Assembly: GCA_049643885.1 (NCBI GenBank)
Contig: JBARQV010000027.1
Location: forward strand, 3,294-67,293
DNA: 64,000 nt
Direction: 5' to 3'
Source: Candidatus Omnitrophota bacterium
GTDB lineage: Bacteria; Omnitrophota; Gorgyraeia; Tantalellales; Tantalellaceae
Shown: positions 1,574 through 63,437 of the stretch, in pieces
How the letters are laid out: each line of letters opens with the position of its first letter
How positions within the stretch are numbered: the first letter of the stretch is position 1
The notes under the pieces: model-generated
Databases searched by the model: none
The model's input: only the letters and a program-made list of their open reading frames with translations
What the model was told of the DNA's origin: nothing
Translations under genes and position numbers: made by a program

Positions 1574-1594
1574 GTCTGAAGTCTGAGGTCTGAT
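1574..1594. repeat. degenerate heptanucleotide tandem tract (gTCTGAa gTCTGAg gTCTGAt) immediately upstream of a start codon
   Basis: Three 7-nt units read directly. It shares the motif CTGAAGNCTGAGGTCTGA with 15051-15070 and with the reverse complement of 8341-8358. Confidence 0.5.
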
Positions 1595-2572: not shown

Positions 2573-2583
2573 AACAATAGTGA

Positions 2584-2611
2584 ACTTAGAAGTTAGAAAT
2601 TAGTAGTTAGT
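2584..2611. repeat. heptanucleotide tandem tract (acTTAGa agTTAGa aaTTAGt agTTAGt)
   Basis: Four 7-nt units sit directly upstream of the dgt-like start codon. Confidence 0.45.
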
Positions 2612-3802: not shown

Positions 3803-5293
3803 ATGGATAAATTGTTGCGGAAACTGAAAGGAAGCGTTGATCTGCGGCGCGAGATCGAGGCCTTCAGGAGATATATAAAGAATTTTGCCTGGATAATCTT
3901 CCCAAAAGTTCCCGGCAGCGTGGATGAATTAAAGAAGACCGAAGTCGGGAAATATGTGGCGAAAGAGCTTACCAGGAAGGAAGAGATCCGGAAGGGATTG
4001 GAGGATATCCTCGCGGCTCTCAAGAAATGCAAAAGGCAGAACAGTTTTGAACAGTTCCGTTACGGGAAAAGGCGGATGGGCGTATGTTACCCGCTTGTTT
4101 CCGAAGGTAAGACCTTCGGGTATATCGTTCTTTGCGGATTGAGAAGGGCGGTTCCCGAGACCCTGCAGGCGCTTTTTACTTCGTATACCGACGTGGTTGT
4201 CAGGGAGACCCAGAAAGAACTTGAGCTGGAGGAGCTTAATAAGACGGTCAGGCCCAGGGCCATTGCACTTTCCACTGTTCACACTGTTCACAGGCTGATG
4301 GGTGCCACCTTGAACATCAACGAGCTTCTTCCCCGCATAGCGCGTCTTTCGCTGCAGGTGATGAGAGCCAATCGCTGTTCGATAAAACTTGTGGACAGGA
4401 GAAGAAAGGTCCTTTTGCCCAAGACTACCATTGATCTGAGGAAGAAAAAAGCGAAACTCAAGAAGGTTACTATAGGCAAGTATGCTCCGGGAAGGGCGGT
4501 AAAACAAGCCAGGTCTATAAGAGGCAAGAACTATCTCGCCTCGCCCCTGATCGAAGAGGAGGTATTAGGGGTCATAACTCTTTACGACAAGATAGAAGGG
4601 TCGGAATTCACGGCCTTTGACGAAGAGATCATGAAGACCCTTTCGGAACAGGCTGTCATCGCCATAAAGAACGCGCAGCTTTTCCAGGAGCAGGAGGATC
4701 TTACCCTGAGCAGTATCAAATGTATAGCCCAGCTTCTCGAGACCCGCCCGAGCGGATTTCACAAGGCTGAGGCTTCTTTCCTGAAACTGCTCAGCATCAT
4801 CGGCAGGAAATTCAACATGAATGAAAGCGAGATCAAGATGCTGCAGTACGCCGCGATGCTTCACGATGCCGGACAGATAAGCATACCGGAACGAGTGCTT
4901 CTCAAGAAAGGAGACCTTACCGGAAAAGAGTACGACATAGTCAAGATGCATCCCCTGAAAGGCGCGGACATATTGTCGAAATTCAGGCCGCTGAAGCCCA
5001 TTGTTCCTATTATCCTGTACCATCACGAAAACTTTGACGGGAGCGGTTATCCCAGGGGTTTGAAAAAAGACAACATACCGTTGGCTGCCCGGATCCTCGC
5101 GGTGGTAGCGTCATTCGAGGCCATGATCACAGAGAAACCATATCGCAAGGCGCTTTCGATAAGTTCGGCGGTGAAAGAAGTCGGGAAAAATTCAGGGACA
5201 CAATTTGACCCTAAGATCGTTGAAGAGTTTTGTGAAGCCGTCGCCAGGAAAGACGTAAAAAGACTTTTGGAGAAAGAGCTTGGTATGTTATGA
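3803..5293 (+). CDS. GAF-domain / HD-GYP-domain protein (putative c-di-GMP phosphodiesterase)
   Basis: The C-terminal region HDAGQISIP...HHENFDGSGYPRGL is the HD-GYP signature. The central part looks GAF-like. Confidence 0.8.
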   Translation: MDKLLRKLKGSVDLRREIEAFRRYIKNFAWIIFPKVPGSVDELKKTEVGKYVAKELTRKEEIRKGLEDILAALKKCKRQNSFEQFRYGKRRMGVCYPLVSEGKTFGYIVLCGLRRAVPETLQALFTSYTDVVVRETQKELELEELNKTVRPRAIALSTVHTVHRLMGATLNINELLPRIARLSLQVMRANRCSIKLVDRRRKVLLPKTTIDLRKKKAKLKKVTIGKYAPGRAVKQARSIRGKNYLASPLIEEEVLGVITLYDKIEGSEFTAFDEEIMKTLSEQAVIAIKNAQLFQEQEDLTLSSIKCIAQLLETRPSGFHKAEASFLKLLSIIGRKFNMNESEIKMLQYAAMLHDAGQISIPERVLLKKGDLTGKEYDIVKMHPLKGADILSKFRPLKPIVPIILYHHENFDGSGYPRGLKKDNIPLAARILAVVASFEAMITEKPYRKALSISSAVKEVGKNSGTQFDPKIVEEFCEAVARKDVKRLLEKELGML

Positions 5294-5553
5294 AAGAGAA
5301 GATCGAAAAAGTCGTTAAAGATAAACTTAGCAGAGAGATACTGACTTTTTTCTATCAGAATCAGTCAAGCATCGATACTGTCAGCGGGATCTCAGCGTGG
5401 GTCCGCAGCGACCGTAAAGAAGTCAAAACGGCGCTTGATAAGCTTGTCCAGCTGGGCATCCTTGAGCAGGACAGCATGGGCTCCACAAGAGGCTACTGCT
5501 ATACCCGGGACCCGAAAACCATGAAGATCGTCCGGGAGCTGATGAAAGAATAA
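5290..5553 (+). CDS. small hypothetical protein (possible winged-helix fold)
   Basis: 87-aa ORF translationally coupled to the upstream gene by ATGA overlap. No recognisable catalytic motif. Confidence 0.4.
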   Translation: MKEKIEKVVKDKLSREILTFFYQNQSSIDTVSGISAWVRSDRKEVKTALDKLVQLGILEQDSMGSTRGYCYTRDPKTMKIVRELMKE

Positions 5554-6224
5554 TGCGTAAACTGGCATTTTTCCTTCCCGTTGCAATAATCCTCGCCTTG
5601 TTATCCTGTTTCTTTTTACTGGATAATATCATAGTTTTTTCAATCGGCGCTTTGTCCGATATTACGATCTCATACGAGGCCGATAAGGGCAATGTCCTTA
5701 CAGGTTCGGAAATAAAAGGGTTACAGATAAAGAACAAAAAAGGGGGCTTTAACCTCTTTGCCGAAAAAGCTTATTTAAAGGTCAAGTTAAGGCAATCCTT
5801 CAAAGAGAAGAGGCTCGTGCTTGAAAGCAGTATGCAGGCAGTGAGGTTCGAGACCAAAATTAAAAGCACGACAGGTTCTCCGTCAGAAGATAATGTCATG
5901 GCCGCTCCATTTTCAGGAGACCGGAAATACGAACAAATGGCATTTACCGCTTACATTGACAAAATGGCCGTCAAGATCAGCGGTTTCAAGGCTATGTCGC
6001 CTGACGTAAGGATGATGGGAAATTGTGTATTTTTCTGGGGAAAGGATGATATATCCCTGGACCTGAATATCTCGTTTTCGCCTGAAGCCGCGTCCGTCTT
6101 CCCGGAAGAGATCAAAAATGAGTTCCTTTCGCCGGATGAAAATGGTTGGTACAGCACTGTGATCAGCTATAAGGGAAATGCGCTTATGCTCATGGCCTTT
6201 TATTCACTTACCATGTCACCGTGA
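5553..6224 (+). CDS. hypothetical membrane-anchored protein
   Basis: N-terminal transmembrane segment FFLPVAIILALLSCFFLL. Good codon structure but no recognisable domain. Confidence 0.4.
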   Translation: MRKLAFFLPVAIILALLSCFFLLDNIIVFSIGALSDITISYEADKGNVLTGSEIKGLQIKNKKGGFNLFAEKAYLKVKLRQSFKEKRLVLESSMQAVRFETKIKSTTGSPSEDNVMAAPFSGDRKYEQMAFTAYIDKMAVKISGFKAMSPDVRMMGNCVFFWGKDDISLDLNISFSPEAASVFPEEIKNEFLSPDENGWYSTVISYKGNALMLMAFYSLTMSP

Positions 6225-6250
6225 CCCCCGGGGTATTTGGCCCCGCCCCC

Positions 6251-6278
6251 TTGATATTTGTAAATAATATGATACAAT
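6251..6278 (+). promoter_or_regulatory. sigma70-like promoter (TTGATA - 16 nt - TACAAT)
   Basis: -35 TTGATA at 6251 and -10 TACAAT at 6273, about 10 nt upstream of the SPOR-protein start. Confidence 0.35.
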
Positions 6279-6287
6279 ATAGCCCCT

Positions 6288-6905
6288 ATGAATAAGAAGT
6301 TTCAGAGTGACTTTTTCGGGGAAAATTATGCCGAAAAAAAGGCTAGAAGGCTGGAGTTCTCTCGCAAGTACTACAAACACAGGTTGTTACCAAATTTAAG
6401 GATACCCACCGAATACGCGTTCATAATCGCTATCGGGGGCCTTATATCGATGATAGTAGTTTATGCCATCGGGGTAGAAAGAGGAAAGCATATCCAGATC
6501 GAAAAGTTCGCGGGAGGCGCAGCCTTAAAAACGCATGTCCTTTTAAATAAAAGAGTTAACGCAACAACTCCGGTGGAGATACAAGAGTCGAAGCGGGAAA
6601 TCCAAAAACCGGAAGAGACCACGAAAGAGGAGACTGCCGGGGGCGAAGAAAAAGCGGAAAAAGAAGCCAGTCCCTCTTATGATATAACGGGGTATATGAT
6701 CCAGCTTGCGTCATTTAGAAATGAAAGCTCGGCGGAAAAGGAAGTAGAAAGGCTCAAAAGAATGGGGTATAACGCGGCATACAACAAGAGCGGGACCTGG
6801 TACCGGGTCTATGTTTCCGGTTACAATAAGATGAGGGAAGCCGCAAAAGCAAAAAGTGAACTTGCCGGGATCTACAAAGATTGTTATATAAGAAAGATCG
6901 ATTAA
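6288..6905 (+). CDS. SPOR-domain protein (peptidoglycan-binding, cell-division associated), N-terminally membrane-anchored
   Basis: The C-terminal ~75 aa (YMIQLASFRNESSAEKEVERLKRMGYNAAY...GTWYRVYVSGY...) is a typical SPOR domain. There is one transmembrane helix near the N-terminus. Confidence 0.75.
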   Translation: MNKKFQSDFFGENYAEKKARRLEFSRKYYKHRLLPNLRIPTEYAFIIAIGGLISMIVVYAIGVERGKHIQIEKFAGGAALKTHVLLNKRVNATTPVEIQESKREIQKPEETTKEETAGGEEKAEKEASPSYDITGYMIQLASFRNESSAEKEVERLKRMGYNAAYNKSGTWYRVYVSGYNKMREAAKAKSELAGIYKDCYIRKID

Positions 6906-6915
6906 GGAGGAGACA

Positions 6916-7254
6916 ATGACACAGCATTCAAGTTTGAAAAAGGGAGGCGAGAGTAAATTTAGATCGGTTCTGAAACGCTTTGAACGTTTGAAAGAACTGG
7001 CCGATAAGGAAAAGTGGTTCGAAGAGAAAGATTCGATCTATAAATTGCCTAAATTAAAGATCATCAAGTTCAAGGTCAAAAAAGTCAAGGCTGCGGAAGA
7101 AGAAGTTGCTCCTGCAGAAGCGGCAGCGGCAGGCGCTGAGGGAGCCGCTTCGGCAAAGAAAGCCGCTCCTGGTAAAGAGGCTCTGGGCAAAGGTGCAGCT
7201 CCCGCTGAAGGCGGCGCTCCGGCCGGCGAGAAGAAGCAAAAAGCGAAGAAATAG
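6916..7254 (+). CDS. hypothetical Lys/Ala/Glu-rich protein
   Basis: AGGAGG ribosome-binding site 7 nt upstream. Low-complexity A/E/K-rich C-terminus. Confidence 0.45.
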   Translation: MTQHSSLKKGGESKFRSVLKRFERLKELADKEKWFEEKDSIYKLPKLKIIKFKVKKVKAAEEEVAPAEAAAAGAEGAASAKKAAPGKEALGKGAAPAEGGAPAGEKKQKAKK

Positions 7255-7287
7255 TTGGTCGTCGGACCTTGGATATTGGAGGTATAG
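7253..7287. repeat. heptanucleotide tandem tract (agTTGGt cgTCGGa ccTTGGa taTTGGa ggtatag)
   Basis: 7-nt periodicity directly upstream of the ATG at 7288. It contains a GGAGG-like Shine-Dalgarno sequence. Confidence 0.4.
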
Positions 7288-7664: not shown

Positions 7665-8339
7665 ATGCGATATAAGGGCGTAACGGCGGCCCAGATGGCC
7701 GAGATCGACAGAAGGGCGCAGGAAGAGTACAATATACCCCAGATCGTCCTTATGGAAAATGCCGGCCGTTCCGTAGCCGAGATCATCCTTTCCGAGATAA
7801 AATCCATCGAGAATGAGAGAATAGCCGTTCTTTGCGGCAACGGAAACAACGGTGGAGACGGTTTTGTGATCGCCAGTCATCTGGCAGAAAGATCCCCGAG
7901 TCGTTTGACCATCTATGCCCCGCGCCCTGAAAAGATCAAAAAGGGAGCTGCTTTCGAGAACTTCGGGATCATGCAAAAAATGGGACTTGAGATCCTTCCG
8001 GTAGAAGAATTGATCTCATCCCCGGACATATTGGCCGAATACACCGTAAGCATCGACTCTATTTTCGGTACTGGTTTTAAAGGAGACCTACCCGAAGGTT
8101 ACGGCTTTATCGGTAAAGTCTTAAATGGCTCTGGTCTTAAGCGCTATGCAGTCGATATCCCCTCGGGGCTTGATTCAACAACCGGCAGGGCTGCGGAGAA
8201 TTGCCTGAAGGCCGATAAAACCATAACTTTCGGCCTTCCCAAGCGCGGGTTTTTCATCGGCGACGGCCCGGGGGTCTGCGGTAAGATCGTGGTCCGGAAC
8301 GTCGGCTTCCCCGAATCCCTCCTTCGTGAATATATGTAA
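7665..8339 (+). CDS. nnrE: NAD(P)H-hydrate epimerase (YjeF N-terminal domain)
   Basis: Contains MENAGRSVAE...VLCGNGNNGGDGFV...DSIFGTGFKG...VDIPSGLD. Confidence 0.8.
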   Translation: MRYKGVTAAQMAEIDRRAQEEYNIPQIVLMENAGRSVAEIILSEIKSIENERIAVLCGNGNNGGDGFVIASHLAERSPSRLTIYAPRPEKIKKGAAFENFGIMQKMGLEILPVEELISSPDILAEYTVSIDSIFGTGFKGDLPEGYGFIGKVLNGSGLKRYAVDIPSGLDSTTGRAAENCLKADKTITFGLPKRGFFIGDGPGVCGKIVVRNVGFPESLLREYM

Positions 8340-8340
8340 G

Positions 8341-8361
8341 CCTCAGACTTCAGACAACAGA
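8341..8361. repeat. heptanucleotide tandem tract (cctCAGA cttCAGA caaCAGA)
   Basis: Its reverse complement matches the CTGAAGTCTGAGG motif family seen at 1574 and 15051. Confidence 0.4.
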
Positions 8362-8365
8362 CGGT

Positions 8366-8812
8366 TTTTTATTGCCTGTCCATTCCTATCAGGATGTTCC
8401 ACTGCTTATTTAAAATGCTTGTTCTGCTTTTCCCGGGTAGATGATCAACCCTTCTTTAGCGGGGACGGTCAATTTCCCCGGCGAGGAAATTGTCCTCTAA
8501 AATTTTTTCACTCTCCCTCAAGACTTCGCCTTTCGGGATCCCTGCCCGCTCAAAAATTTAAAGCCCCGCTTCCGAAAGGTTAATCATCTACCCAGAACAA
8601 AAAATCCAAACTTTCTTCACTCAGATGTTCGACTTGTCAGGGTTACGGAAAGGTCCGGGGGTGTGTTCAGTGCGAGTTTCCAAAAAAAAAGCGATTTTAG
8701 GTCGCTTTTTTTTGGACTGTCTGAGCACGGAACACACCCCCGGGCCTTTTCAACATTCAGACAAGTCAAACATCTGATGAACGTTTAATAGGAACGGACA
8801 GGCAATAAAGAC
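8366..8812. repeat. large nested-palindrome non-coding element (possible MITE or structured RNA)
   Basis: Outer inverted repeat TTATTGCCTGTCCATTCCTAT (8369-8389) pairs with ATAGGAACGGACAGGCAATAA (8789-8809). Inner arms of ~60 nt (8622-8681 and 8714-8775) are ~75% identical in inverted orientation. The central hairpin is A9-GCGATTTTAGGTCGC-T8 (8682-8713). An additional inverted repeat GGGTAGATGATCAACC (8435-8450) pairs with GGTTAATCATCTACCC (8578-8593). Confidence 0.5.
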
Positions 8813-9978: not shown

Positions 9979-10438
9979 GAACGTATCCACGCTGCGGGTT
10001 TCATCTGCCCGAAAAGTCCAGTTCATAGATATCACTTCCGATATTTCTGATTTTGTCCGGAAAAGCGGCGTGGCCGACGGTATTTGTTTCATACACGTGC
10101 CGCACACCACGGCCGGTGTTACTATAAATGAAAATGCCGATCCCGATGTGGTCGCGGACATGATCACGGCGCTTGAACATATCGTGCCGTCACATCGCGG
10201 CTATCTGCACGCAGAAGGAAATTCGCCGGCTCATGTCAAATCATCGCTTATCGGATGTTCCGAAAAGATATTCGTAAGCGCCGGCAAGCTTCTTCTTGGG
10301 ACTTGGCAGGGAATATATTTCTGCGAATTTGATGGACCCAGATCACGAAAGGCCCACCTAAAGATTGTGGAAGGTAGAAATATGTCATCCCGGACCCGCC
10401 GAAGGCGGGATCCGGGAACAAATAAGATTATTATGTGA
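9968..10438 (+). CDS. YjbQ/UPF0047-family protein (secondary thiamine-phosphate synthase-like), with an atypical 18-aa C-terminal tail encoded by a repeat element
   Basis: The core matches UPF0047 (ITSDISDFVRKSG...HTTAGVTINENADPDV...GTWQGIYFCEFDGPR). The paralog at 15462 ends ...QIIGE, whereas this ORF runs on through the 10382-10463 element. Confidence 0.8.
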   Translation: MSSKNVSTLRVSSARKVQFIDITSDISDFVRKSGVADGICFIHVPHTTAGVTINENADPDVVADMITALEHIVPSHRGYLHAEGNSPAHVKSSLIGCSEKIFVSAGKLLLGTWQGIYFCEFDGPRSRKAHLKIVEGRNMSSRTRRRRDPGTNKIIM

Positions 10439-10463
10439 TCCCCGCTTTCGCGGGGATGACATA
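10382..10463. repeat. copy 1 of a hairpin-rich ~85-nt repeat element flanked by inverted repeats ATGTCATCCC...GGGATGACAT
   Basis: Matches 25818-25911 in its 5' ~65 nt: ATGTCATCCCGGA(C/T)CCGCCG(A/T)AGGCGG(G/A)ATCCGGGA(A/T)CAAATAA(G/A)A(T/A)TATTATGTGATCCC. It contains two internal hairpins. Confidence 0.6.
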
Positions 10464-10484: not shown

Positions 10485-10886
10485 ATGAATACAGAAAAAA
10501 TCGAAATAAGAGCGAGATATCAGGAAACAGACCAGATGGGCGTAGTTTATTATTCTAATTACCTTGTCTGGTTCGAGATCGCTCGGACCGATTATTTCCG
10601 TAAAAGAGGAGTTGTATACAAAGAGTTAGAAGAAAGAGATAAAATATATCTTCCCGTGGTTGAGGCCTGCTGCAGGTACAGAGCGCCCATTAGATACGAT
10701 GATCTGGTTACGGTTGAAACCAAACTTACCGAAGCGAGCAAATCGCGGTTGACTTTTGAATATGAGGTAAAAAAAGAAGCGAAAGTTACGACTACAGGCT
10801 ACACCAAACACGTCTTTGTGAACGGCAGCGGAAAACCCATCCCCATACCGGAAAACATCAAATCCTCACTCGTCGGTCGTCGGTAG
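10485..10886 (+). CDS. acyl-CoA thioesterase, YbgC/4HBT (hot-dog fold) family
   Basis: The sequence EIRARYQETDQMGVVYYSNYLVWFEIARTDYF matches the 4-hydroxybenzoyl-CoA thioesterase family N-terminus. The true ATG is at 10485; the track ORF starts earlier, inside the repeat element. Confidence 0.8.
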   Translation: MNTEKIEIRARYQETDQMGVVYYSNYLVWFEIARTDYFRKRGVVYKELEERDKIYLPVVEACCRYRAPIRYDDLVTVETKLTEASKSRLTFEYEVKKEAKVTTTGYTKHVFVNGSGKPIPIPENIKSSLVGRR

Positions 10887-10911
10887 TCGTTCGTCGATCG
10901 TGATTCGTGGA
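10870..10911. repeat. heptanucleotide tandem tract (TCGTCGG x2, TAGTCGT, TCGTCGA, TCGTGAT, TCGTGGA)
   Basis: Six 7-nt units span the stop codon of the thioesterase gene. Confidence 0.5.
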
Positions 10912-13649: not shown

Positions 13650-13680
13650 TTTCAGCGATGTTTTAAGTGGAACGACAGAA

Positions 13681-13716
13681 AAAGGGAGCGATTGGAAGAT
13701 CGCTCCCTTTTTTGTT
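13681..13716 (+). terminator. intrinsic terminator (AAAGGGAGCGAT-TGGAA-GATCGCTCCCTTTTTTG)
   Basis: Perfect 12-bp GC-rich stem followed by a T-tract. Confidence 0.7.
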
Positions 13717-13738
13717 TTGTAATGAAAACGGAGGAAAG

Positions 13739-14158
13739 ATGACGCCGAGCGAAGAACAGAACAAAAAAGAGGAAGAGGCGAAAGAGGTCGCGAAGCCGGA
13801 AGCGAAAGAAGAGGCTCCGAAAGAAGAGGCCCCGAAAGAAGAGGCCCCGAAAGAAGAGGCCCCGAAAGAGGAGGCTCCGAAAGAAGAGGCCCCGAAGGAG
13901 GAGGCTCCGAAAGAAGAGGCCCCCAAAGGGCGTACTCCTAAAAGCACCAAACCGCATAAACCTACCGAGTGTGCCGGTTGTGACAAGCCGCTAAGAAAGA
14001 AGCTGTGGTATTACAGGAACGATGCTTTCTATTGCACAAAGGCCTGCTTCGTGCGCAAGAAGGAAGAAGAGCGTAAAAAGGCCGAAGAAGACAGGAAGAA
14101 GGCCGAAGAAGAGGCGAAAAAAGCTGCCGAAGAAGCAAAACCAAAAGAAGCAGCGTAA
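13739..14158 (+). CDS. repeat protein: (EEAPK)x8 acidic tract followed by a TRASH/YHS-like 4-Cys zinc ribbon and a K/E-rich tail
   Basis: The motif CAGCDKPLRKKLWYYRNDAFYCTKAC fits the C-x2-C...YYFC-x2-C TRASH/YHS pattern. GGAGGA ribosome-binding site 7 nt upstream of the ATG at 13739. Confidence 0.6.
   Translation: MTPSEEQNKKEEEAKEVAKPEAKEEAPKEEAPKEEAPKEEAPKEEAPKEEAPKEEAPKEEAPKGRTPKSTKPHKPTECAGCDKPLRKKLWYYRNDAFYCTKACFVRKKEEERKKAEEDRKKAEEEAKKAAEEAKPKEAA
13808..13927. repeat. eight near-identical 15-nt tandem repeats (GAAGAGGC(C/T)CCGAAA) encoding EEAPK
   Basis: Read directly. Only third-position C/T variation is seen between units. Confidence 0.9.
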
Positions 14159-14173
14159 GGCTCACCCTTAGCC

Positions 14174-14650
14174 ATGCCTAAAGGAATTCTCGTAAGCAGT
14201 TGTCTCATCGGGAAAAATTGTTCATATGACGGCGGGGCGCGCACCGATATAAAAGTGTTCGGGCTTTGTGAGCGTTTTGATTGTGTGGATACATGCCCGG
14301 AGCTTGAAGGCGGCTTGGGATGCCCCAGGGAGATACACGAGATATCCGGCGGAAATGGTGACGACGTTCTTGAGGGCAGGGCTCGGGTGATGTCCTTCTC
14401 AGGGGCGGACAGGACAGGAAACTTTATCGAAGGAGCTGAATCTGCCCTGAAAAAAGCGCTGGAAAATCAAATATCCGTCGCGATCATGAAGTCCAAGAGT
14501 CCTTCTTGCGGAAAATATAAAATCTATTCCGGCAAATTCGATAAAACCCTGCGCGATGGCTGCGGGGTGACAACTGCCCTCCTGTGTCGGAACGGAATAA
14601 AGGTTTTCACTGAAAAAGAGATCAAAGCGGTCAGAGAAGAACTCCGTTGA
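14174..14650 (+). CDS. DUF523-family protein (TudS-like Fe-S enzyme family)
   Basis: The N-terminal ILVSSCLIGKNCSYDGG motif and later SPSCG cysteine motif are characteristic of DUF523. Confidence 0.7.
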   Translation: MPKGILVSSCLIGKNCSYDGGARTDIKVFGLCERFDCVDTCPELEGGLGCPREIHEISGGNGDDVLEGRARVMSFSGADRTGNFIEGAESALKKALENQISVAIMKSKSPSCGKYKIYSGKFDKTLRDGCGVTTALLCRNGIKVFTEKEIKAVREELR

Positions 14651-14683: not shown

Positions 14684-15031
14684 GTGAGTAATAATTGTCT
14701 GTTCTGCAAGATCGCTAACAAGGAAATAGATACCGACGTCGTTTATGAAGACGACGAGATCATGGCCTTCAAGGACATCAATCCCAAGGCGCCCATCCAT
14801 TTTCTTTTCATTCCCAAACGCCACGTATCTACGCTGAACAGCGCAGGAGAGGGAGATATTGATATCCTCGGTAAAATTTTGATAAAAATCAAGGAAGCAG
14901 CTAAAGAACATGGTATAGCCGAAGACGGCTACCGTGTTGTGATCAATTGCAACAAAAACGCGGGGCAGGAAGTATTTCACATCCATGCTCATCTTCTGGG
15001 TGGAAGGCCTTTTGCCTGGCCGCCGGGTTAG
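14684..15031 (+). CDS. HIT-family (histidine triad) nucleotide hydrolase
   Basis: CLFCKI N-terminus and HIHAHLLGG histidine-triad motif. GTG start. Confidence 0.85.
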   Translation: MSNNCLFCKIANKEIDTDVVYEDDEIMAFKDINPKAPIHFLFIPKRHVSTLNSAGEGDIDILGKILIKIKEAAKEHGIAEDGYRVVINCNKNAGQEVFHIHAHLLGGRPFAWPPG

Positions 15032-15032
15032 T

Positions 15033-15074
15033 GACAGACAACAGACATCAGCCTGAAGACTGAGGTCTGAAATA
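15033..15074. repeat. heptanucleotide tandem tract (GACAGAC AACAGAC ATCAGCC TGAAGAC TGAGGTC TGAAATA) ending at a start codon
   Basis: Six 7-nt units. It includes the CTGAAGACTGAGGTCTGA motif shared with 1574-1594. Confidence 0.5.
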
Positions 15075-15448
15075 TGGAGGAGAAGATGGCTGAAAAAAAG
15101 GAACGCAGAAAGTATCCCCGGGTAAAAGATGATAACATAGCTATTAAACTTTCCGGGGACGGTTTTGATACGATTACCCAAAGCCTTGACGTAAGCGCTT
15201 CCGGGATCTATTGCAAAGTAAGCAAGCATATACCCTTGATGACAAGAGTCCGGCTGGTCCTTACCTTGCCGGGCAAGAATTCGGATTCCGATCCTGATAC
15301 GATGGATGTGGAGGGTATTGTGGTAAGAGGACATCCTGTAATACAGAATGGGAGGGTTCATCACTACGACCTTGCGATATTTTTCGACTCCCTTTTGCCG
15401 CGGCACAGAAAAAAATTGATCCATTATATCGGCCAGAAGTCAAAATAG
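15074..15448 (+). CDS. PilZ-domain protein
   Basis: Contains RRKYPRV...DVSASGIYCKV. Confidence 0.7.
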   Translation: MEEKMAEKKERRKYPRVKDDNIAIKLSGDGFDTITQSLDVSASGIYCKVSKHIPLMTRVRLVLTLPGKNSDSDPDTMDVEGIVVRGHPVIQNGRVHHYDLAIFFDSLLPRHRKKLIHYIGQKSK

Positions 15449-25597: not shown

Positions 25598-25744
25598 ATG
25601 AATAAGGCACTGATATTTGTTTCTTTATTGCTTCTGATAGCTTTTATCGCGGGATGCGGAGAGACGATAAGGGGTGCGGCCAAGGACACGAATCGTATAG
25701 GCCAGGGCATCAGGAAGGTATTTGTATCCGATAGCACGAAATAG
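25598..25744 (+). CDS. entericidin EcnA/B-like small lipoprotein (48 aa; absent from the ORF track because shorter than 60 aa)
   Basis: MNKALIFVSLLLLIAFIAGCGETIRGAAKDTNRIGQGIRKVF has a lipobox plus the G-x-D-x4-G-x-I pattern of entericidins. Confidence 0.5.
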   Translation: MNKALIFVSLLLLIAFIAGCGETIRGAAKDTNRIGQGIRKVFVSDSTK

Positions 25745-25817: not shown

Positions 25818-25911
25818 ATGTCATCCCGGATCCGCCGTAGGCGGAATCCGGGATCAAATAAAAATATTATGTGATCCCGGGTCTCGGCCTGCGGCCTCGC
25901 CCGGGATGACA
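25818..25911. repeat. copy 2 of the hairpin-rich repeat element (ATGTCATCCC...GGGATGACA)
   Basis: See 10382-10463. It ends 8 nt before the radical-SAM gene ATG. Confidence 0.6.
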
Positions 25912-29113: not shown

Positions 29114-29167
29114 TTGCCCGATTTATCGGGCAAAGTTTATTGATGTAGTTGCCCAATTCATTGGGCA
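29114..29167. promoter_or_regulatory. two 20-bp perfect palindromes TTGCCCGATTTATCGGGCAA and TTGCCCAATTCATTGGGCAA, 34 bp centre-to-centre
   Basis: Read directly. They lie between the nfnB stop and the response-regulator start. They could be terminator hairpins, an operator pair, or both. Confidence 0.4.
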
Positions 29168-29868: not shown

Positions 29869-30107
29869 ATATCCAGATATCCCCAAAAAAAGCACAATTA
29901 AAAGTTTAATTAGCTAGATAGCGCCAAAAATCCCTCCATTTTTAATTAACCCAAATTTAATCAAATTCAAATAATTACTTAACGTGCATGCTATATACTT
30001 GAAGTGTATGGCGAATACATATATATATGTGTATTCGCTTGAAATACGTTGAAATGTTAGGTAAACTAAAAGAGTGTAGCAAAAGACGCTCTTTCTTCTT
30101 TGAAAAT

Positions 30108-30235
30108 TCGCGAAAGGCAAACCCCGTGAAAGCGGGGGGCGCAAAGCTTGAGAGCCTAAAGCCGTTGGCTATGGCAGTCAGTTGCCGAATGGGAAAAATT
30201 AAAAACCCATAGCTTCTCAGGCTATGGGTTTTTTG
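30108..30235 (+). promoter_or_regulatory. c-di-GMP-I (GEMM) riboswitch-like leader, copy 1, with terminator expression platform
   Basis: AAAGGCAAACC; P2 hairpin CCCCGUG-AAA-GCGGGG carrying a GAAA tetraloop; GGCGCAAAGC; tetraloop receptor CCUAAAG...CUAUGG. The arrangement is close to the Vibrio Vc2 class-I aptamer. A terminator follows at 30205-30235 (ACCCAUAGC-UUCUCAG-GCUAUGGGU-U6). Confidence 0.8.
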
Positions 30236-30248
30236 CTATATACGATGC

Positions 30249-33200
30249 ATGGTGAGGTTGGCAGAAATGAACAATAACAATTCTTTAAGAGTATGTATTA
30301 TTATCCTGGCAATGTTATTTGCCTGGACGAATTGTGTCTACTCTCTGCCGAAAGTCGACGAGGTCGTATCCGGCGAAGCAGAAGTAAAGATGGTCGATCC
30401 CAACACCATGCAGATCAATGCCACCGACAACACCATCATAAATTACCAATCATTTAACATCATGGAACACGAATCGGTTATCATCTCTCTCCCGAATTCA
30501 AGCAGCGAGATCCTTAACCGGGTGATAGGGCCTGACCGCAGCGACCTCTTTGGTAACCTGTCATGTAACGGGATATTTATCCTCGTGAACCAGAACGGGA
30601 TCTATGTGGGGCCGAACGCTAATATAGAAGCGGCAAGCGCGATCCTTTCGACAAGGGACATAACCGACTCCGATTTTATCGATGGGCAATATCTATTCCA
30701 GAAACTCTCCGATGAAGAGATGGACATGCTCCTCCTCAACGAGGGCACCATAAGGATCCAGGACGGCGGCTTCGGCGTCCTGATAGCCGGGGCGATAGAG
30801 AACAATGGTAAGATCATAGCCCCGTGCGGTAAGATAGTCCTGGCAGGGGGAGACGCCATAAAGCTTAACATGTCGGCGAATGGCCTGATCTCCGTCGCCA
30901 TCCTGGAGAAAACGGCTTCCAAAATATATGACCATGAAGGGAACCCCATACTTGACCAGATCAAGAATACCGGCGAACTTCGGGCGAACGGGGGCGCCGT
31001 TATTCTCAAGGCGGAAAGCGTAACCGATGTCTTTAGAAGCGCTATAAACCTGGAAGGGGTGGTCGAGGCCAACAGGGTAGAGGACAAAGACGGTGTTATA
31101 AGCATAGTGGCCGATAATGATGTAACGATAAACGCGGAAATGGCAGCAACTAGCATTGATATTAAGACTGAATATGATATTGACCTGGACGCTAATATCG
31201 TTGCTTCCGAAGGCGACATACTTCTTTTTGCCGATTATGACGGAGACGGGATCGGCAGCTTCAGGCAACACGGCGGCCTGATCGAGGCGACAGGTGAAGG
31301 GGATATTTATATCGAAGGCTCCGGGGAAATGGTCCTTGGGGCCGTCAAGACAGAGCTGGGTGCGATCAAGATAGGCACCCAAAGGGAGCCTTTTTCCATA
31401 ACGGGCGAACCTCATTATATCCATTCAAAGGGAGATTTTGAGATCACCGCGATGGATGAGGGCGAGGAGGTGACCACCCTCCATACCAGCCGGGGAGATG
31501 TCCTGAAATACAACACCACCGGCAAGGTGATCCTTGAGGCGGCGGACGGCAGGATCGAACAGCTGATCCAGGAGCCGTTGCCGGCGGGATATCTGGAACT
31601 GAAGGCCAGGACATTTGACGTTAATTCAGAAGCAGATGTTACAGTTATCAATGATATTGATAGTAATATTTATATTGAAAAGCTGATAGAGATCTCGGAA
31701 GATGTAGTTTCCCTGGAAGGCGAAACGACCGGCAGGGTCACGTATCTTATCTCGAATGATATTGTCCTCCAGACCCCTCATGACGTGGACACTGCCCCCG
31801 GGGTTATTATCCCGGGAGATAATGTCAAGATAACCGCCAGAAGAATAGGGTCAAACGACTCACCTGTGGGTATTTCTGCCAACCTCACCTATATCCATAG
31901 GATCCAGGGAGACATCGTCATCTCCGAGATCTGGGGTCTCGGGACAACAATATGCATCAGGGGTCCTGACCCGGATACGAACCCGGATAGCTGGGGAGCG
32001 ATTAATTTAAATAAAAATACAGACCTTATATTGGAGGCCTCTCAAGGAGGTCTTTTTATATCTGAAAATTGTGCTCTTCAAGCACAAAATCTCACATTAA
32101 TCGCAAGCCAGGGCATAGAAAATTACGGCTCTTTATTGGTCGAGAACGGAACCCTCACCCTTACGGCGGAAGGCGCCGTAATAAGCCTTGGCTCCTTAAG
32201 GGCCGAGACCCTTATAGAGGAGGGCGCCTCTTTTGTGGTCGGAGGAGAATATATAGTAGGCTACGCAACCGCCCGGAACGCAGATAACGCTGTAACACTT
32301 TATACGGGAAACTATTCAGGAGAAACCAGCGATACAGGCGACATTGCTGTCAAAAATAACAACATTATAACCCTGGTGGGAGACACTATATTCCGCGCTG
32401 ACAGCGACCAGAATGGGGTCGGGGGTTTTAAGCCTCAAGTTGGCTCCAGCATTGTAGGAGGGGGATATAATCTTTGGATATATGGTTCCGAGAGCTCAAC
32501 CCTTCGGCAGATAACAGGCGTCGGGACTCTTTCGCTATATAGATCCTACGCAAGCTCAAATCCCTATTATATTGATTATAGTGCCTGGAGCGTGGGGAAT
32601 TTGATCATTGGCGCAGGTATTTCGTTAGATATCCAAGGTGTGGGTTTAACATTAAGTGGAAATTTTACAAATAACGGCACATTTGTGTCAAATAACGCCG
32701 TCATATTCAGCGGCGCCGGTACGTCAAATATTACAGGAAATATCACATTTAACAATCTTACCTGTACTACCGCCGGCAAGATCCTGAAATTCAAAGAAGG
32801 CCAGACTTTTACCATAAACGGGACCCTTGCCCTGACAGGAACATCCGGCAATGAGATCGTTCTCGACAGCCAGAACGGTTCAACGCAATTTACGTTTAAA
32901 GTGGCCAGCGCCCAGAGCGTCAGCTACATAGTTGTCGCAAACTCTAATGTCGACGATACTTCAGGCGGCAATATAACCGCCTCTAACTCTTATAATGACG
33001 GCAATAACGATACCGGACCCACGGGACGTTACTGGGCAGGGCTTCCCGCGGCAACATATTCTGTTTACGGGGCAGTATATTCCGACCAGGGTTCTACGCT
33101 GATGGGCGCGGGTGTGAATATAGTTCTGGCGAGAAACGGAGTGGTCACGGCCAACACAAATACGCTTGCGAGCGGCCAGTACGCTTTTCACGGACGAGCT

Positions 33201-36200
33201 TTCTCAGCCAATGATGTGGTTTTGATCTACATAAACAATAGTACCACAAACGGTAATGTGGTAGTAATTGTAGATGCTGCCAGGATAACCGGGGCGGATA
33301 TATACGGGAACACTGCTATCGCCAGGCACCAGACGGCGGGACCCGTCACGAACGCGACATTTTCTACAGCTAAAGGCTCCATGACGGATACGGATATAAT
33401 CTATTCGGTGTCCGGTTCCAACTTGGAACTGAATGAGGGAGTGAGCTTTGTGGTATGGACAGGCGATACATATACTCCGGGTGGAAATCTTTATTGCAAC
33501 GATGTTGTCGTGCAGTCAAGCGCTATATTCAATGCCGCCGCGGGCTCTACAATAAGCGCCTCAGGCGATTGGGCGAACAGCGGCACGTTCAATCCCAGCA
33601 CATCGACCGTTATCCTTACCGGCGGAAGCGTGCAAACGCTGACTTCAGGGGGGTCTTCGTTCAACAACCTTACGATTGCGGGCGTAGGCACGTACAGGCT
33701 TCAGGATGCCCTGAATGTTACCGGCACCCTTGCTATATCAGGGTATTCCTACAAAAAAGCGATCGTTATAGATAATACAAAAGTAAACGCTGATCTGACG
33801 AATTTTCCGGTCCTTTTCAGCGTTACCGACAGCGATCTGGCGGTGACAGGCAGCGGCGGATATGTAACGAGTTCCAACGGTTGTGACATTATCTTTACCG
33901 ATCACGCCGGGGTCCAGCTGGACCATGAGGTCGAGTCATACAACCCGGCGACCGGACAGATCATCGCATGGGTGAAGGTGCCGAGCCTGTCAAATTCCAC
34001 AGACACGACGATCTACGTCCATTACGGTAACAGCGATATCATAACCTCGCAGGAGAACCCGACAGGCGTATGGAGCAACGGTTTTGCCGCGGTCTGGCAT
34101 CTTGGTTCATCCATAAATGATTCGACAAGCAACGGCATCACAGGCACAAATAACGGGACAACGGAAGAGACGACTATCGTAAAGGTGGGCACAAGCACTT
34201 ATTTTAACGGTTCAGAATCCGATTATATCAATTATGGCGAGCCGAGCGCGCTCGATATAAGTGGGAACAACCCGATCACCATCGAAACCTGGGTATACTT
34301 TAACTCGGTCGCTGCAAACTATCAGGATTTCTTCTCAAAAGGTGACACGCAATACCACTTACAGAAAAATAACGCAGATCCCGGGGTAATACAATTTGTT
34401 ATTTATGACGGAGACTGGCAGCTTGTCCAGGCGGACAGCAATGTTTCAACAGGAACCTGGTATCATGTTGTAGGGACATATAATGGAGTAAGCGGCGGGG
34501 CACTGGAGCTTTATATAAATGGCTCCAAGCAGACAGGCAGCGACACAGCTGCATCGATCAACAATACGGCTTATAGTGTCTATATGGGCGAGAACAGCCA
34601 GTCAACCGGCCGCTACCTGGACGGATATATGGACGAAGCCCGCATATGCAACGCCTACAGGACTGGTGGCTGGATACAGACCGAGCACAATAACCAATCC
34701 TCTCCTTCGACGTTTTATCCTAATTACACTTCGGAAGCACGGACCACCGGTGACAGTGCGACGCTTTGTCTGAATGGCAAGAACCTCTCTACCGCAACAC
34801 TCAATAATACCGGGACCCTGAGGCTCCTGGGGGCAGAAACGGTAAGCATAACCACGATGGATACAGATTCAGGACTGGTTGATTATTATGGAGACGGTTC
34901 ATATACGGGACTGGCGGCGGGGGACAGCTACTTCGACCTTACGTTTTCGGGGACCGGGGTCTATACCCTTGATGCCGATCTGGACATAAACGGTGATCTT
35001 TCCTTTACGCCTACATTCCAGTACAGGAAGGAAATAACCATTTACGCCTCACAGGTGGATGCGGACGTGACCGATTTTCCGGTCCTTTTCAGCGTTACCG
35101 ATGCTGACCTGATCGATAACCTGATGCACGACGCGAATTACACTATCAAGTTCACCAACGCGACCGGGACCGAGCTGCCATATGAAGTAGAGTATTACAA
35201 TAACGCAACAGGCCAGCTGATAGCATGGGTCAAGGCCGATTCATTATCCTCGAGCACCAATACAACGCTGTGGCTGTATTACGGCTCGCTGGAAGCCGAC
35301 TCCACGGAAGCAGCGACCAGCGTGTGGAGCAACAATTATTCGGCCGTGTGGCACATGAGTGAAGCGTCGGGGACTATCTATAATTCAACATCTTATCCCA
35401 ACAACGGGACCGCCGCCGGGGGCATTACTTACGGCGCAGCCGGAAAAATAGACGGATCTGTCAGCCTTGACGGCGTTGATGATCGGATAAACTGCGGGTG
35501 GGATCCAAGCCTGTCGCCCTCGAATGCGATCACCGTTTCCCTTTGGACGCAGAATGCCGTATCTCCGGCGCAATATGACGGCATCCTCGGCAAGACAAGC
35601 AGCTTTAAATGGGACGACGGGTACGGCATGTTTTACAACAGCTCAACCGAGGTCCGTTTTTATGTATCAAATTACAGCGCGAATGTCGCTTACGCGTCCT
35701 TGACGCCCACGAACATGAATTATATTGTCGGCACGTTTGACGGTTCGAATGTGCGGATATATGTAAATGGCGTAGAGGGCACGGCAGATCCGTATGCAGG
35801 CACCATATCATCAACGGCAGCCATGTTAGTGCTGGGCCAGTTATCGGGAACTGCATACAATATCAACGGCAAGCTGGATGAAGTCCGCGTTGCCGGCACA
35901 TGGCGTCCGTCCGGCTGGATCTCAACAGAATTCAAAAACCAGAATTCTCCCGGCACGTTTTTCGGCACCGGAAGCGAGATCAGCGGCGGCGCTACCATAA
36001 ACGCAGGAAGCTATGACATCAACAGTGCAGGCGATTTTGATCTTACAAGCGGCATATTTGATGCCGGTACGGGCACGGTTATATTTGACGGGGTATCCAC
36101 CCAGACCCTGACCACGGCCTCATATGATTTTTACGGTTTGACCGTCTCCAACGCCTCCTCAAACGGTGTTCAGCTTGCAGATGCCCTTACCGTTACGAAC

Positions 36201-44420: not shown

Positions 44421-44434
44421 TCGGGTCATCGGGT

Positions 44435-48688: not shown

Positions 48689-48967
48689 CGGAACCTCCTT
48701 TATTTGGCATGCCAAGCGAGACAGGGTTAAAGAAAATAAAGAGCAATTTTATATTGTTAATATATCACTTCTAAGCGGTTTTTGCAATGAGATTTACAAG
48801 AATGCCTTCGGGGCGAGAGACCCAGAAAGGTGTTCTGTGGGGGGGGCGAAGAAGAAAATGTTAAAAAAACAAAAGGCAGTAGAGGTTTTCTTATAATATT
48901 ACTTACCATGTGCTATACTTTAACTGGAGCTACATATACGCGTTCTTTGGGATATTTGTATAAGTAA

Positions 48968-49095
48968 CGATAAAGGCAAACCTTGCGAAAGCAGGGGACG
49001 CAAAGCTCAAGAGCCTAAAGCCGGGAGGCTATGGTAGTCAGTTGCCGAAACCGAGAATCCGTGACCCATAGTCTGTCCAGGCTATGGGTTTTTTA
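48968..49095 (+). promoter_or_regulatory. c-di-GMP-I (GEMM) riboswitch-like leader, copy 2, with terminator expression platform
   Basis: AAAGGCAAACC; P2 CCUUGCG-AAA-GCAGGG, which differs from copy 1 by compensatory changes (C-G to U-A, and U.G to C-G); GGACGCAAAGC; CCUAAAG...CUAUGG. Terminator ACCCAUAG-UCUGUCCAG-GCUAUGGGU-U6 at 49064-49095. Confidence 0.8.
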
Positions 49096-49120
49096 TTTTA
49101 GAGGTAGATAGGTGCCTGAA

Positions 49121-62033: not shown

Positions 62034-63259
62034 GAGAAGGTCAAGTGGATACGAATAAAGCGATAGAAAAGGCGAAAGATCATTTTGCTGAAGTGATCCG
62101 TGAGCAGCTTGAACGTGTCGAACGCATGAAGAAGGGCGAGGAGTGGACCGACTACAGATCACTTAAACCCATAATAATAGGGGTCTGCTGGGGAGACGGG
62201 ATAGGGAAGATAATATCAAAACACGCCTCGCATGTTCTTGAACAGTTCCTTAAGGACGAGGTGTCTGCCGGAAACGTTGAATTCAGGCAGATATCGGGTC
62301 TTACGATAGAGAACCGCGCTAAACACATGAAAGCCATCCCGGATGACGTCCTTAAAGAGATAAAAGGCTGCCATGTCATATTGAAAGGGCCTACGACCAC
62401 TCCCCAGGTAGGTGATGAATGGCCGAATATTGAAAGCGCGAACGTAGCCATGAGAAGAGAGCTGGATCTCTTCGCGAACGTCCGCCCCGTAAAAGTCCCT
62501 TCCGAGGGGATCGACTGGACGTTCTTCAGGGAAAATACCGAAGGTGCCTACATTCTCGGCTCAAAAGGGCTGGACGTGACGGAAGACTTGAGTATAGACT
62601 TTAAAGTGATAACCGAACAGGGCGCGGAAAGAATAATACGCATGGCCTTTGAGTACGCTAAGGACAACGGGCTCAAAAGGGTCACCGCCGTCACAAAAGC
62701 TAACGTGATGAAGGCCACCGACGGGAGGTTTTCCAGAATAGCGAAAAGGATGGCGGAAGAATATAAAAAGTTCGGGATAGAGCAGGATGAATGGTATATA
62801 GATATCATGACCGCTAAACTCATAGATCCCGCAAGGCGCAGGGATTTTCAGGTCATGGTCCTGCCGAATCTTTACGGGGACATACTTACGGATGAGGCCG
62901 CCCAGCTGCAGGGCGGTGTCGGCACGGCAGGGAGCGCTAATATCGGCAAACGCTGGGCTATGTTCGAGGCCATACACGGCAGTGCCCCTCGTATGGTAAA
63001 GGAAGGCCGCGATATATACGCCGATCCGTCGTCCATGATACGCGCCGCCGCGATGCTTTTGAGGCATATAGGCTACCCTGACAGGGCGAAGCGCCTGGAT
63101 ATGGCGCTGGAAGTCTGCGTCCAGTTCGAGAAAAAGCTGGTTATAACAGGCCGCGACACGGGCGCGACAGGCGAAGAATTCACGAATTACCTTCTTAAAT
63201 GGTGTGACAACCCGGATCTCGAAAAGACTTGGAAAAAATATGCAACCAGCGGTGAATGA
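62003..63259 (+). CDS. isocitrate/isopropylmalate dehydrogenase-family protein (start codon uncertain)
   Basis: Contains IIIGVCWGDGIGK and NLYGDILTDEAAQLQGGVGTAGSANIG. The long N-terminal extension in the track ORF suggests the real start may be an internal start codon (e.g. the ATG at 62126) rather than 62003. Confidence 0.75.
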   Translation: MGTFSRPWGIGEGQVDTNKAIEKAKDHFAEVIREQLERVERMKKGEEWTDYRSLKPIIIGVCWGDGIGKIISKHASHVLEQFLKDEVSAGNVEFRQISGLTIENRAKHMKAIPDDVLKEIKGCHVILKGPTTTPQVGDEWPNIESANVAMRRELDLFANVRPVKVPSEGIDWTFFRENTEGAYILGSKGLDVTEDLSIDFKVITEQGAERIIRMAFEYAKDNGLKRVTAVTKANVMKATDGRFSRIAKRMAEEYKKFGIEQDEWYIDIMTAKLIDPARRRDFQVMVLPNLYGDILTDEAAQLQGGVGTAGSANIGKRWAMFEAIHGSAPRMVKEGRDIYADPSSMIRAAAMLLRHIGYPDRAKRLDMALEVCVQFEKKLVITGRDTGATGEEFTNYLLKWCDNPDLEKTWKKYATSGE

Positions 63260-63262
63260 GGG

Positions 63263-63297
63263 ATGACTGTTGGATGTTGGATACTCGGTGTTCGATC
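63263..63297. repeat. heptanucleotide tandem tract (GATGACT GTTGGAT GTTGGAT ACTCGGT GTTCGAT)
   Basis: Five 7-nt units immediately after the stop codon at 63257-63259. Confidence 0.45.
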
Positions 63298-63437
63298 GAA
63301 GAAGGGCAGTAAGTTCCCGTACAGGGAGGATCTACCCTACCGGGCACAGGCACACCGGCCGGAGGGGCCCTGGTAGCGAATATACTGCACTTCTCAATCC
63401 GCAAGAGCATAGCGCAAAATGCAAAGAGCGATAAATC

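Follow-up and report, generated by a model that had tools for sequence, protein, structure and literature searches.

Why do tandem repeats of differing sequence, all with a period of 7 nt, recur at the boundaries of genes in one bacterial genome? The question is raised by a stretch of 64,000 nucleotides from Candidatus Omnitrophota bacterium (GenBank assembly GCA_049643885.1, contig JBARQV010000027.1, positions 3,294 to 67,293 of the forward strand), the whole of which we call the window; a preliminary description of its sequence had listed tracts of degenerate heptanucleotide units at gene junctions. Our analysis confirmed that the heptamer periodicity is real and lies far beyond chance. On balance, the tracts are probably short, partly decayed heptanucleotide simple-sequence repeats (SSRs) that arose by slippage and are tolerated only where they do not fall within a reading frame.

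Heptanucleotide tracts at gene junctions

All seven tracts of that description are present where it placed them. It had spoken of at least eight junctions; for an eighth we found only a candidate, at 63401-63435. The features are given below with positions in the window and, where counted, the number of bases matching the base 7 nt downstream (lag-7 matches).

1574..1594, + strand: (GTCTGAN)x3 within a 39-nt spacer flanked by the Metallophos_2 stop (1556-1558) and the Na/Ca-exchanger ATG (1598); 12/14 lag-7 matches
1585-1588, + strand: GAGG, 9 nt 5' of the Na/Ca-exchanger ATG
2582..2611, + strand: (GAAGTTA)x4, alternatively read as NTTAGNN, after the Na/Ca-exchanger stop (2570-2572) and into the start of the HD gene (ATG 2613 or 2616); 19/23 matches
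7255..7282, + strand: weak (NTTGGNN)x4 in the 33-nt spacer 5' of the tRNA_bind gene (ATG 7288); 13/21 matches
8341..8362, - strand: (GTCTGNN)x3, reversed, with the 13-nt core CTGAAGTCTGAGG, 1 nt past the YjeF_N TAA stop (8337-8339); 12/15 matches
10870..10911, + strand: (TCGTCGN)x6, decaying toward its 3' end and spanning the thioesterase stop; 26/35 matches
15033..15050, - strand: (GTCTGNN)x2.5, left arm of an inverted pair, 1 nt past the HIT-gene stop (15029-15031)
15051..15070, + strand: right arm GCCTGAA GACTGAG GTCTGA, with the core CTGAAGACTGAGG, 5' of the PilZ gene
63263..63297, + strand: (TGTTGGA)x2, perfect, plus three degenerate units, 3 nt past the isocitrate-dehydrogenase stop (63257-63259); 17/28 matches
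63401..63435, + strand: candidate eighth, weak lag-7 tract of NANNNGC type, directly 5' of the GMP-synthase-type ATG (63438); 14/21 matches

The lag-7 match, that is, the fraction of bases identical to the base 7 nt downstream, ranged from 0.61 to 0.86 over the seven tracts, against an intergenic baseline of about 0.28. Individual values were 0.86 for the tract at 1574, 0.83 for 2582, 0.80 for 8341, 0.74 for 10870 and 0.68 for 15033, and the tracts at 7255 (0.62, P ~1e-3) and 63263 (0.61, P ~3e-4) would be weak if taken alone. Tandem Repeats Finder (TRF) independently called a period of 7 at four of the seven: 1574-1593 (2.9 copies, 92% matches), 2582-2610 (4.1 copies), 10870-10901 (4.6 copies) and 63268-63282 (2.1 copies). 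Array matches in TRF were 81-92%, so that these are imperfect repeats.

The preliminary description had read 15033-15074 as six direct units; the 15032-15073 spacer holds, rather, an inverted pair of GTCTGNN arms. It had also proposed an 18-nt core shared by three tracts, which survives in part: 13 nt, CTGAAGNCTGAGG, are found in all three copies, and the full 18 nt only in the two + strand copies. The 13-nt core has three exact copies in the window (1576+, 8341- and 15053+), with 0.17 expected. There are at least five distinct units in the 64 kb, GTCTGAR being found at three loci. Across 11 GTCTGNN units, on direct reading, positions 1, 3, 4 and 5 are invariant. A common consensus for the window units, GTYNGAN, was tried and rejected, the similarity not being significant once GTCTGA duplicates were collapsed (P = 0.11).

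Since the flanking open reading frames (ORFs) are genuine genes, the tracts truly lie at gene junctions. Pfam matches identify a calcineurin-like phosphoesterase, Na/Ca exchanger, HD phosphohydrolase, tRNA-binding protein, YjeF_N, thioesterase, HIT, PilZ and isocitrate dehydrogenase; the sole flanking ORF without a Pfam hit, of 112 aa (6916-7254), is still called in near-identical assemblies. Some tracts reach into the signals of these genes. The thioesterase TAG (10884-10886) opens the third unit of the 10870 tract, whose array encodes the last ~5 codons, and the last unit of the 7255 tract, TTGGAGG, holds a GGAGG Shine-Dalgarno sequence (7278-7282). The idea that units may serve as Shine-Dalgarno sequences is plausible at 1585-1588 and 7278-7282, but doubtful for the GAGGT at 15062: the PilZ gene has an ATG at 15074 or, according to gene callers, at 15086, the latter with its own GGAGGAG upstream, so that GAGGT need not be its Shine-Dalgarno. 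The 2573-2612 spacer before the HD gene has no canonical Shine-Dalgarno.

The Na/Ca-exchanger ORF itself begins (1598-1614) with ATG GTCTGG TTAGAA, in which GTCTGG resembles the GTCTGAN unit just upstream and TTAGAA is the unit of the array at the same gene's other end (2582-2611). ATGGTCTGG of this ORF start is conserved in three of the related lineages introduced below (L007-L009). The ORF start could have been the seed of the arrays, or the likeness could be a coincidence.

Lag-7 periodicity in non-coding DNA

By a curated gene map, intergenic DNA makes up 3.5 kb (5.6%) of the window. Its lag-7 match rate lies above that of shuffles with z = 6.6-6.8, and z = 7.8 was obtained for the 45 nt adjoining genes. 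The signal recurs as a harmonic at lag 14; among lags above 2, no other is enriched in the window's intergenic DNA. The coding DNA of the window gave no lag-7 signal, just the usual 3-nt periodicity, and the first 50 kb of Escherichia coli K-12, treated in the same way, gave an intergenic lag-7 z of 0.0. The enrichment of lag-7 periodicity at gene boundaries over shuffled sequence, on which the preliminary description had staked its claim, therefore holds in the window.

A scan free of annotation, with a threshold of at least 11/14 lag-k matches, detected seven tracts at lag 7 (five intergenic, one across a stop codon and one coding), and 0-3 tracts at each of lags 4, 5, 8, 10, 11 and 13. Six of the seven hits were thus intergenic or straddled a stop, although so little of the window is intergenic. 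After masking the seven tracts, a residual lag-7 excess remained (z = 4.3), and therefore more decayed remnants exist. Repeats of another period occur as well: the 14-nt spacer between two convergent giant ORFs (44421-44434) reads TCGGGT CA TCGGGT, with a period of 8 and not 7, and a few period-8 arrays, e.g. GGTGCTCT, are found in the related lineage L130.

Position and structure of the arrays

Arrays lie nearer to gene ends than expected from random placement in spacers (mean normalised distance 0.28 vs 0.5; Kolmogorov-Smirnov (KS) P = 0.002), with 9/21 located 0-8 nt from a gene end or straddling it, and both array orientations adjoin genes. RNA of the 1574 spacer folds worse than shuffles, with z = +1.0, and so does that of the 2582 spacer, the least structured of the spacers, with z = +1.9. 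The RNA of 15025-15095 forms an ordinary hairpin (z = -0.3), the centroid fold pairing CAGAC with GUCUG, and the RNA of 8335-8400 is not structured (z = +0.95). No Rfam family was found at any tract.

Two candidate roles were rejected. A terminator function disagrees with the unstructured RNA of 8335-8400 and with the lack of sense-strand terminator-like sites at any tract. A design that places stops in three frames is not borne out by stop-containing units, which are not enriched (20/39 on the + strand, null 0.45; 26/39 on either strand, null 0.63). Among the 40 window proteins scanned we found no transposase, no RNA-binding domain, no RAYT-like gene and no HutP-like protein. The HutP-type RNA site, to which a HutP homologue binds, is (UAG-N4)x3, i.e., three UAG at 7-nt spacing; as a lead only, UAG recurs every 7 nt in the 2582 tract, and the remaining tracts have no UAG.

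Distribution among Omnitrophota

Contigs near-identical to the window are present in ENA, NCBI and Logan assemblies, and its nearest named relatives are Candidatus Omnitrophota metagenome-assembled genomes. We sampled ~20 kb around homologues of two window genes in nine other Omnitrophota lineages, designated here by labels starting with L. The numbers of lag-7 tracts per 10 kb were:

L130: 6.8
L008: 6.2
L009: 2.4
L132: 2.0
L352: 1.7
window: 1.1
L007, L131, L353 and L354: all 0
E. coli: 0.2

The background, given by other lags that are not multiples of 3, was 0.1-0.6 tracts per 10 kb. Heptamer arrays are a patchy trait within Omnitrophota, with syntenic relatives at both extremes of density and the window a mild case. 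The intergenic lag-7 excess reached z = 17.1 in L130 and z = 6.9 in L132, with a flat signal in their coding DNA as in that of the window. L130 has 15 arrays in 22 kb, every one of them non-coding or at gene ends, and its 850-nt spacer 5' of carB is a mosaic of arrays with differing units in both orientations. L008 carries a ~10-unit (TAACTGA) array with an inverted partner 45 nt away. Single unit families recur within these genomes (five AAGGATA-type arrays in L130, four AGTTCGT-type arrays in L008), and inverted pairs are found in L008 (1004-1051 with 1101-1135; 4631-4669 with 4715-4784) as well as in L130 and L132.

Stop codons lie within arrays in both L130 and L132, and L130 also has a called start codon within one. 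For genome annotation this means that a start codon, stop codon or ribosome-binding site can come from a tract, so that called gene ends can shift (10884 in the window; 7590 and 7736 in L130). In the complete genome CP070807.1 (L352), a ~6-unit (AGTTTTG) array at 5833-5877 falls within a called Pterin_bind gene (5121-6338, minus strand); it is either a coding exception or the result of a wrong gene call.

Stability and turnover

Six window tracts recur unchanged in 3 to 6 independent near-identical assemblies: those at 1574 and 2582 in six, and the 15033/15051 pair in three further assemblies. We found no strain copy-number polymorphism at the six tracts among near-identical assemblies; the tracts are not hypervariable contingency repeats. 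Their imperfection, together with this stability, is as expected of old, short, interrupted repeats. We did not find relatives closer than species with 84-86% CarB identity.

Between related genomes, both length and sequence vary at the same junction. At the phosphoesterase-exchanger junction, L007 has TAA followed directly by ATG, and L008 has 21 nt without a tract. At the exchanger-HD junction, L008 carries (TGAACAG)x2.5, a unit other than the window's, and L007 has no tract. The DHODB and Fer4_20 genes are 2 nt apart in the window, whereas L130 has 134 nt with three arrays between them and L132 has 79 nt with two. Conversely, the junction of the isocitrate-dehydrogenase and guaA genes, with a tract in the window (63263), consists in L130 of only a 10-nt spacer with no tract. 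Length change can be followed in the leader of a small lipoprotein gene, where L130 and L132 have an ATTTGTN-type array between a promoter-like site and the Shine-Dalgarno: L132 exceeds L130 by 62 nt in this array, and the flanking sequences of the two align with few mismatches. The window has at most a vestige of the array, and L131 lacks it. At 25598-25744 the window has a 49-codon small lipoprotein-like ORF (MNKALIFVSLLLLIAFIAGCGE...), which is conserved in L130, L131, L132 and L354 as ORFs of 45-47 aa.

Unit families in metagenomes

A metagenome scan for (GTCTGAN)x3 gave at least 120 matches, in contigs of 34-72% G+C. We rejected GTCTGAN as a special family shared across phyla: in viral contigs, permuted control heptamers were as common or commoner (GCTTGAN, at least 120 matches; GTGTCAN, 57; GTCTGAN, 38), and therefore the abundance of GTCTGAN shows just that heptamer arrays in general abound. 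Orientation with respect to the downstream ORF start was weakly biased, 40 vs 27, in 116 GTCTGAN arrays among the matches listed, with noisy ORF calls and high-GC contigs. At least 12 of 96 GTCTGAN arrays among the matches listed had an inverted partner within 160 nt, and three had a separate direct partner.

Origin of the arrays

We propose that a 7-nt segment in a non-coding spacer would be duplicated through slipped-strand mispairing at replication, and that inverted pairs could arise from template switching. Arrays would then gain or lose whole units, collect point changes, and survive just outside reading frames or at their very ends. They would be confined outside frames because a 7-nt insertion or deletion shifts the frame; and in a compact genome, where tolerant DNA is found only right past stops and right before ribosome-binding sites, they would therefore abut genes. 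Opportunistic recruitment may have given some units a role as Shine-Dalgarno (1585, 7278), stop codon (10884) or unstructured leader. The arrays do not constitute conserved regulatory elements.

From the observed periodicity, restriction to non-coding DNA, patchiness among lineages, turnover at junctions and length change between relatives, together with the published reading of this class of repeats, we infer slippage as the generating process. Among the options raised in the preliminary description, the same properties make a lineage-specific mutational signature the best-fitting one. Its remark that the tracts are not what simple slippage gives is contradicted by surveys that, according to the accounts in PMC4679880 and PMC4692102, attribute heptamers with varied units to polymerase slippage. 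Translational coupling or reinitiation, another of its options, does not agree with relatives in which the same gene pairs have spacers of 0-21 nt and no tract, nor with a 2-nt spacer where a relative has 134 nt of arrays.

Several observations weigh against slippage as a full account. It leaves 7 nt over 4, 5, 8, 10 or 11 nt unaccounted for. It cannot disperse a unit, yet GTCTGAR arrays stand at three unlinked spacers, and unit recurrence is seen in relatives too (AAGGATA-type in L130, AGTTCGT-type in L008). The skew toward gene ends (KS P = 0.002) could mean function rather than tolerance, and the window itself, with no copy-number polymorphism seen within the species, gives no sign of slippage still under way. 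Because slippage leaves over the 7-nt preference, the unit recurrence and the boundary skew, three rivals keep some weight: a translational or RNA-binding role, a palindromic element and a DNA-binding register.

By analogy with what has been proposed for the TAACTGA repeats of Beggiatoaceae, it is possible, though rather unlikely, that the arrays are post-transcriptional elements of 5' leaders and operon spacers, which would offer an unstructured landing pad or multivalent site to the ribosome (S1) or an RNA-binding protein and would tune downstream translation initiation. Four window tracts (1574, 2582, 7255 and 15051) do stop 0-5 nt 5' of a start codon, all in one orientation. Two of the spacers concerned fold worse than shuffles (z = +1.0 and +1.9), a Shine-Dalgarno falls in the last units at 1585 and 7278, and the 2582 spacer has no canonical one. 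The clustering of arrays at gene boundaries, the recurrence of one unit family and the location of the L130 and L132 array between promoter-like site and Shine-Dalgarno of the lipoprotein gene are also consistent with such a role, and a like role near start codons has been proposed in Beggiatoaceae and Nostoc (PMC4679880; bioRxiv 10.1101/2022.06.06.494920). However, low structure is trivial for any direct repeat, and three window tracts (8341, 10870 and 63263) are located past stops and far from starts. In relatives, the same genes have no tract or a different unit, and arrays are found 5' of starts in both orientations (e.g., the AAGGATA family appears as its reverse complement at L130 5565-5594). 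The orientation bias of the metagenomic GTCTGAN arrays is weak, and the scanned window proteins include no RNA-binding candidate.

We regard as improbable that the arrays are arms of small dispersed palindromes, similar to repetitive extragenic palindromic (REP) sequences or miniature inverted-repeat transposable elements (MITEs), which would be copied between intergenic sites and whose hairpins would act as terminators or mRNA stabilisers, the window then holding mainly solo or decayed arms. Inverted pairs of one unit family with a short loop, in the window (15033/15051) and in L008, L130 and L132, speak for this, as do the excess of inverted over direct partners in metagenomic arrays and the finding that a genome can carry one unit family at several unlinked loci. 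Against it, most window tracts are direct arrays that stand alone, the 15025-15095 RNA does not exceed shuffles in stability, sense-strand terminator-like sites coincide with no tract, copies at different loci share the unit only, with no defined ends or flanks, and neither transposase nor RAYT-like gene was among the window proteins scanned. Even less probable are DNA-level binding sites at which a regulator or nucleoid protein would read the sequence in a 7-bp register, three units being 21 bp or two helical turns. A fixed period with variable sequence, the recurrence of GTCTGAR and the constancy of positions 1, 3, 4 and 5 in the GTCTGNN units would suit such a protein, but orthologous promoters and junctions show no conservation, tracts are found in operon spacers and past stops and not at promoter-like sites, and many unrelated units coexist within one genome. 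The repeat-recognising protein suggested in the preliminary description draws on the recurrence of one unit family and the crowding at gene ends, although neither orientation nor sequence conservation favours it. We also regard as unlikely that a heptamer-specific factor carried by some lineages only, either a variant of replication or repair or a binder of repeats in a 7-nt register, creates or maintains the arrays; if true, it would explain the fixed period, the recurrence of units within a genome and the on/off pattern among syntenic Omnitrophota relatives. Finally, an artefact of chance, composition or assembly is refuted. The tracts at 7255 and 63263 are individually weak, but the signal as a whole (z = 6.8 vs shuffles) is confined to lag 7 and its harmonic and is absent from the E. 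coli control (z = 0.0), the sequences are identical across independent ENA, NCBI and Logan assemblies, and relatives give much stronger signals.

Other features of the window and its relatives

The analysis also revealed features other than the heptamers. Two c-di-GMP-I riboswitch aptamers (RF01051) are found on the + strand at 30106-30189 (75 bits) and 48965-49049 (80 bits), each just 5' of a giant ORF (30249-44420, 4723 aa; 49112-55366, 2084 aa), and the window has three PilZ ORFs (12878, 15086 and 19385). The two giant ORFs form a block of ~29.9-57.1 kb together with a 1426-aa minus-strand ORF and a ShlB/FhaC-type transporter. The block is missing from the syntenic L130 (9149-10000) and L132 (9806-10000), where Fer4_20 is followed directly by carB, and L131 and L353 have a ShlB gene and a large ORF at its position; judging from these sequences, it looks like a variable island.

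A conserved leader is located 5' of DHODB-type and GMP-synthase-type genes in L130 (6545-6746), L132 (7257-7458) and L131 (2120-2249 and 16940-17105), and is absent at these junctions in the window. In it, a promoter-like TTGAC...GATAAT is followed by the hairpin GATACG...CGTATC and then by ACAAAGGCGTTC...GAACGCCTTTTTTTT; the leader may act on nucleotide-biosynthesis genes as an attenuator or riboswitch. The near-identical assembly GCA_049644745.1 has a 173-bp insertion (L002 ~14263-14435), absent in the window (~10959), that lies within an inverted repeat, TTGCGAAAACAATAAAATC ... GATCTTATTGTTTTCGCAA, and may be a small mobile element. Two spacers also contain GC-rich, REP-like palindromes (TGTCATCCCGG...CCGGGATGACA type), and a palindrome TTGCCCGATTTATCGGGCAA is present in the window and at another locus in L130; the coordinates of both kinds are 10383-10461, 25819-25911 and 29114-29135 in the window and 5544-5559 in L130. 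Two coding repeats are in frame: 13803-13928 (15 nt, 8.4 copies) within the ORF 13667-14158, and 44810-44991 (39/78-nt units) within the 1426-aa minus-strand ORF.

Comparison with known heptamer systems

Knowledge of intergenic heptanucleotide repeats goes back to about 1990; the name STRR, with the units CCCCAGT, TTGGTCA and CAACAGT, reportedly stems from Mazel et al. in that year. To our knowledge, neither their function nor the cause of the 7-nt period has been established. Three tandemly repeated heptanucleotides are on record for Calothrix PCC7601, as cited in PMC4692102. The window tracts fall into the STRR/long-SSR class, with 7-nt head-to-tail units, non-coding bias, several families and junction variation between relatives. 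Another mark of the class is a copy number of tens to hundreds of arrays per genome; the stretches sampled here gave 1.1 tracts per 10 kb in the window and up to 6.8 in L130. Like the STRRs of heterocystous cyanobacteria (Calothrix, Nostoc), they are tandem 7-nt units of several unrelated families per genome, intergenic and in both orientations; unlike them, the window arrays are shorter (3-6 units), more degenerate, made of other units and in another phylum.

As Mrazek 2007 is reported in PMC4679880 and PMC4692102, heptanucleotides are the most abundant class of long SSRs in most bacterial genomes, long SSRs (5-11 nt) have a sporadic phylogenetic spread with units that are not a multiple of three kept out of coding DNA, and slippage tied to the polymerase footprint has been proposed for the heptanucleotides. 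The Omnitrophota tracts match these surveys in class and properties, as far as the two accounts describe them; the survey predates Omnitrophota genomes, and the tracts here probably fall below its threshold for "long".

TAACTGA repeats occur in marine Beggiatoaceae and in some Cyanobacteria and Bacteroidetes (MacGregor 2015, PMC4679880), in Beggiatoaceae mostly a few nt 5' of start codons, often in place of a canonical ribosome-binding site. We see a likeness in their two to six tandem heptamers, one dominant unit family per genome and occasional inverted sets (PMC4679880). The unit, when rotated, resembles the window's (AACTGAT vs GTCTGAT), and TAACTGA itself forms the array of ~10 units in L008; the window has no TAACTGA, singly or in tandem, and a single TCAGTTA. 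Unlike the Beggiatoaceae repeats, the window units are varied, and half of the window tracts follow stops and do not precede starts. Four (1574, 2582, 7255 and 15051) fit a forward placement near starts, three others follow stops and one is reversed.

The G-rich heptamers GGGAATC of Xanthomonas and GGGGA(T/C)T of Nostoc, whose lengths vary between species (Rehm 2015, PMC4692102), are likewise intergenic heptamer SSRs, some in inverted pairs; their units can form G-quadruplexes, and the window units have no G runs. For Nostoc heptamers within 30 nt of start codons, a regulatory role has been suggested, not shown (bioRxiv 10.1101/2022.06.06.494920). Heptanucleotide repeats are also found at a phase-variable contingency locus, the hmw1A promoter of Haemophilus influenzae (PMC8262952). 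Such loci share with the window tandem heptamers 5' of genes, but their repeats are perfect, long and polymorphic among isolates, whereas the window tracts are interrupted, invariant in near-identical assemblies and located beside housekeeping genes. Judged as REP, REPIN or MITE elements, the tracts offer one inverted pair in the window (15033/15051) and several in relatives, and no shared ends were found.

If the heptamer-specific factor considered above were to exist, the same kind of factor would underlie the cyanobacterial STRRs and the Beggiatoaceae TAACTGA repeats. In the library searched we found no literature linking Omnitrophota with heptamer repeats, and our finding adds Omnitrophota to the phyla with recorded intergenic heptamer repeats. 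Ranging from 0 to ~7 arrays per 10 kb, closely syntenic relatives provide a practical handle on the gene or genes behind the 7-nt preference.

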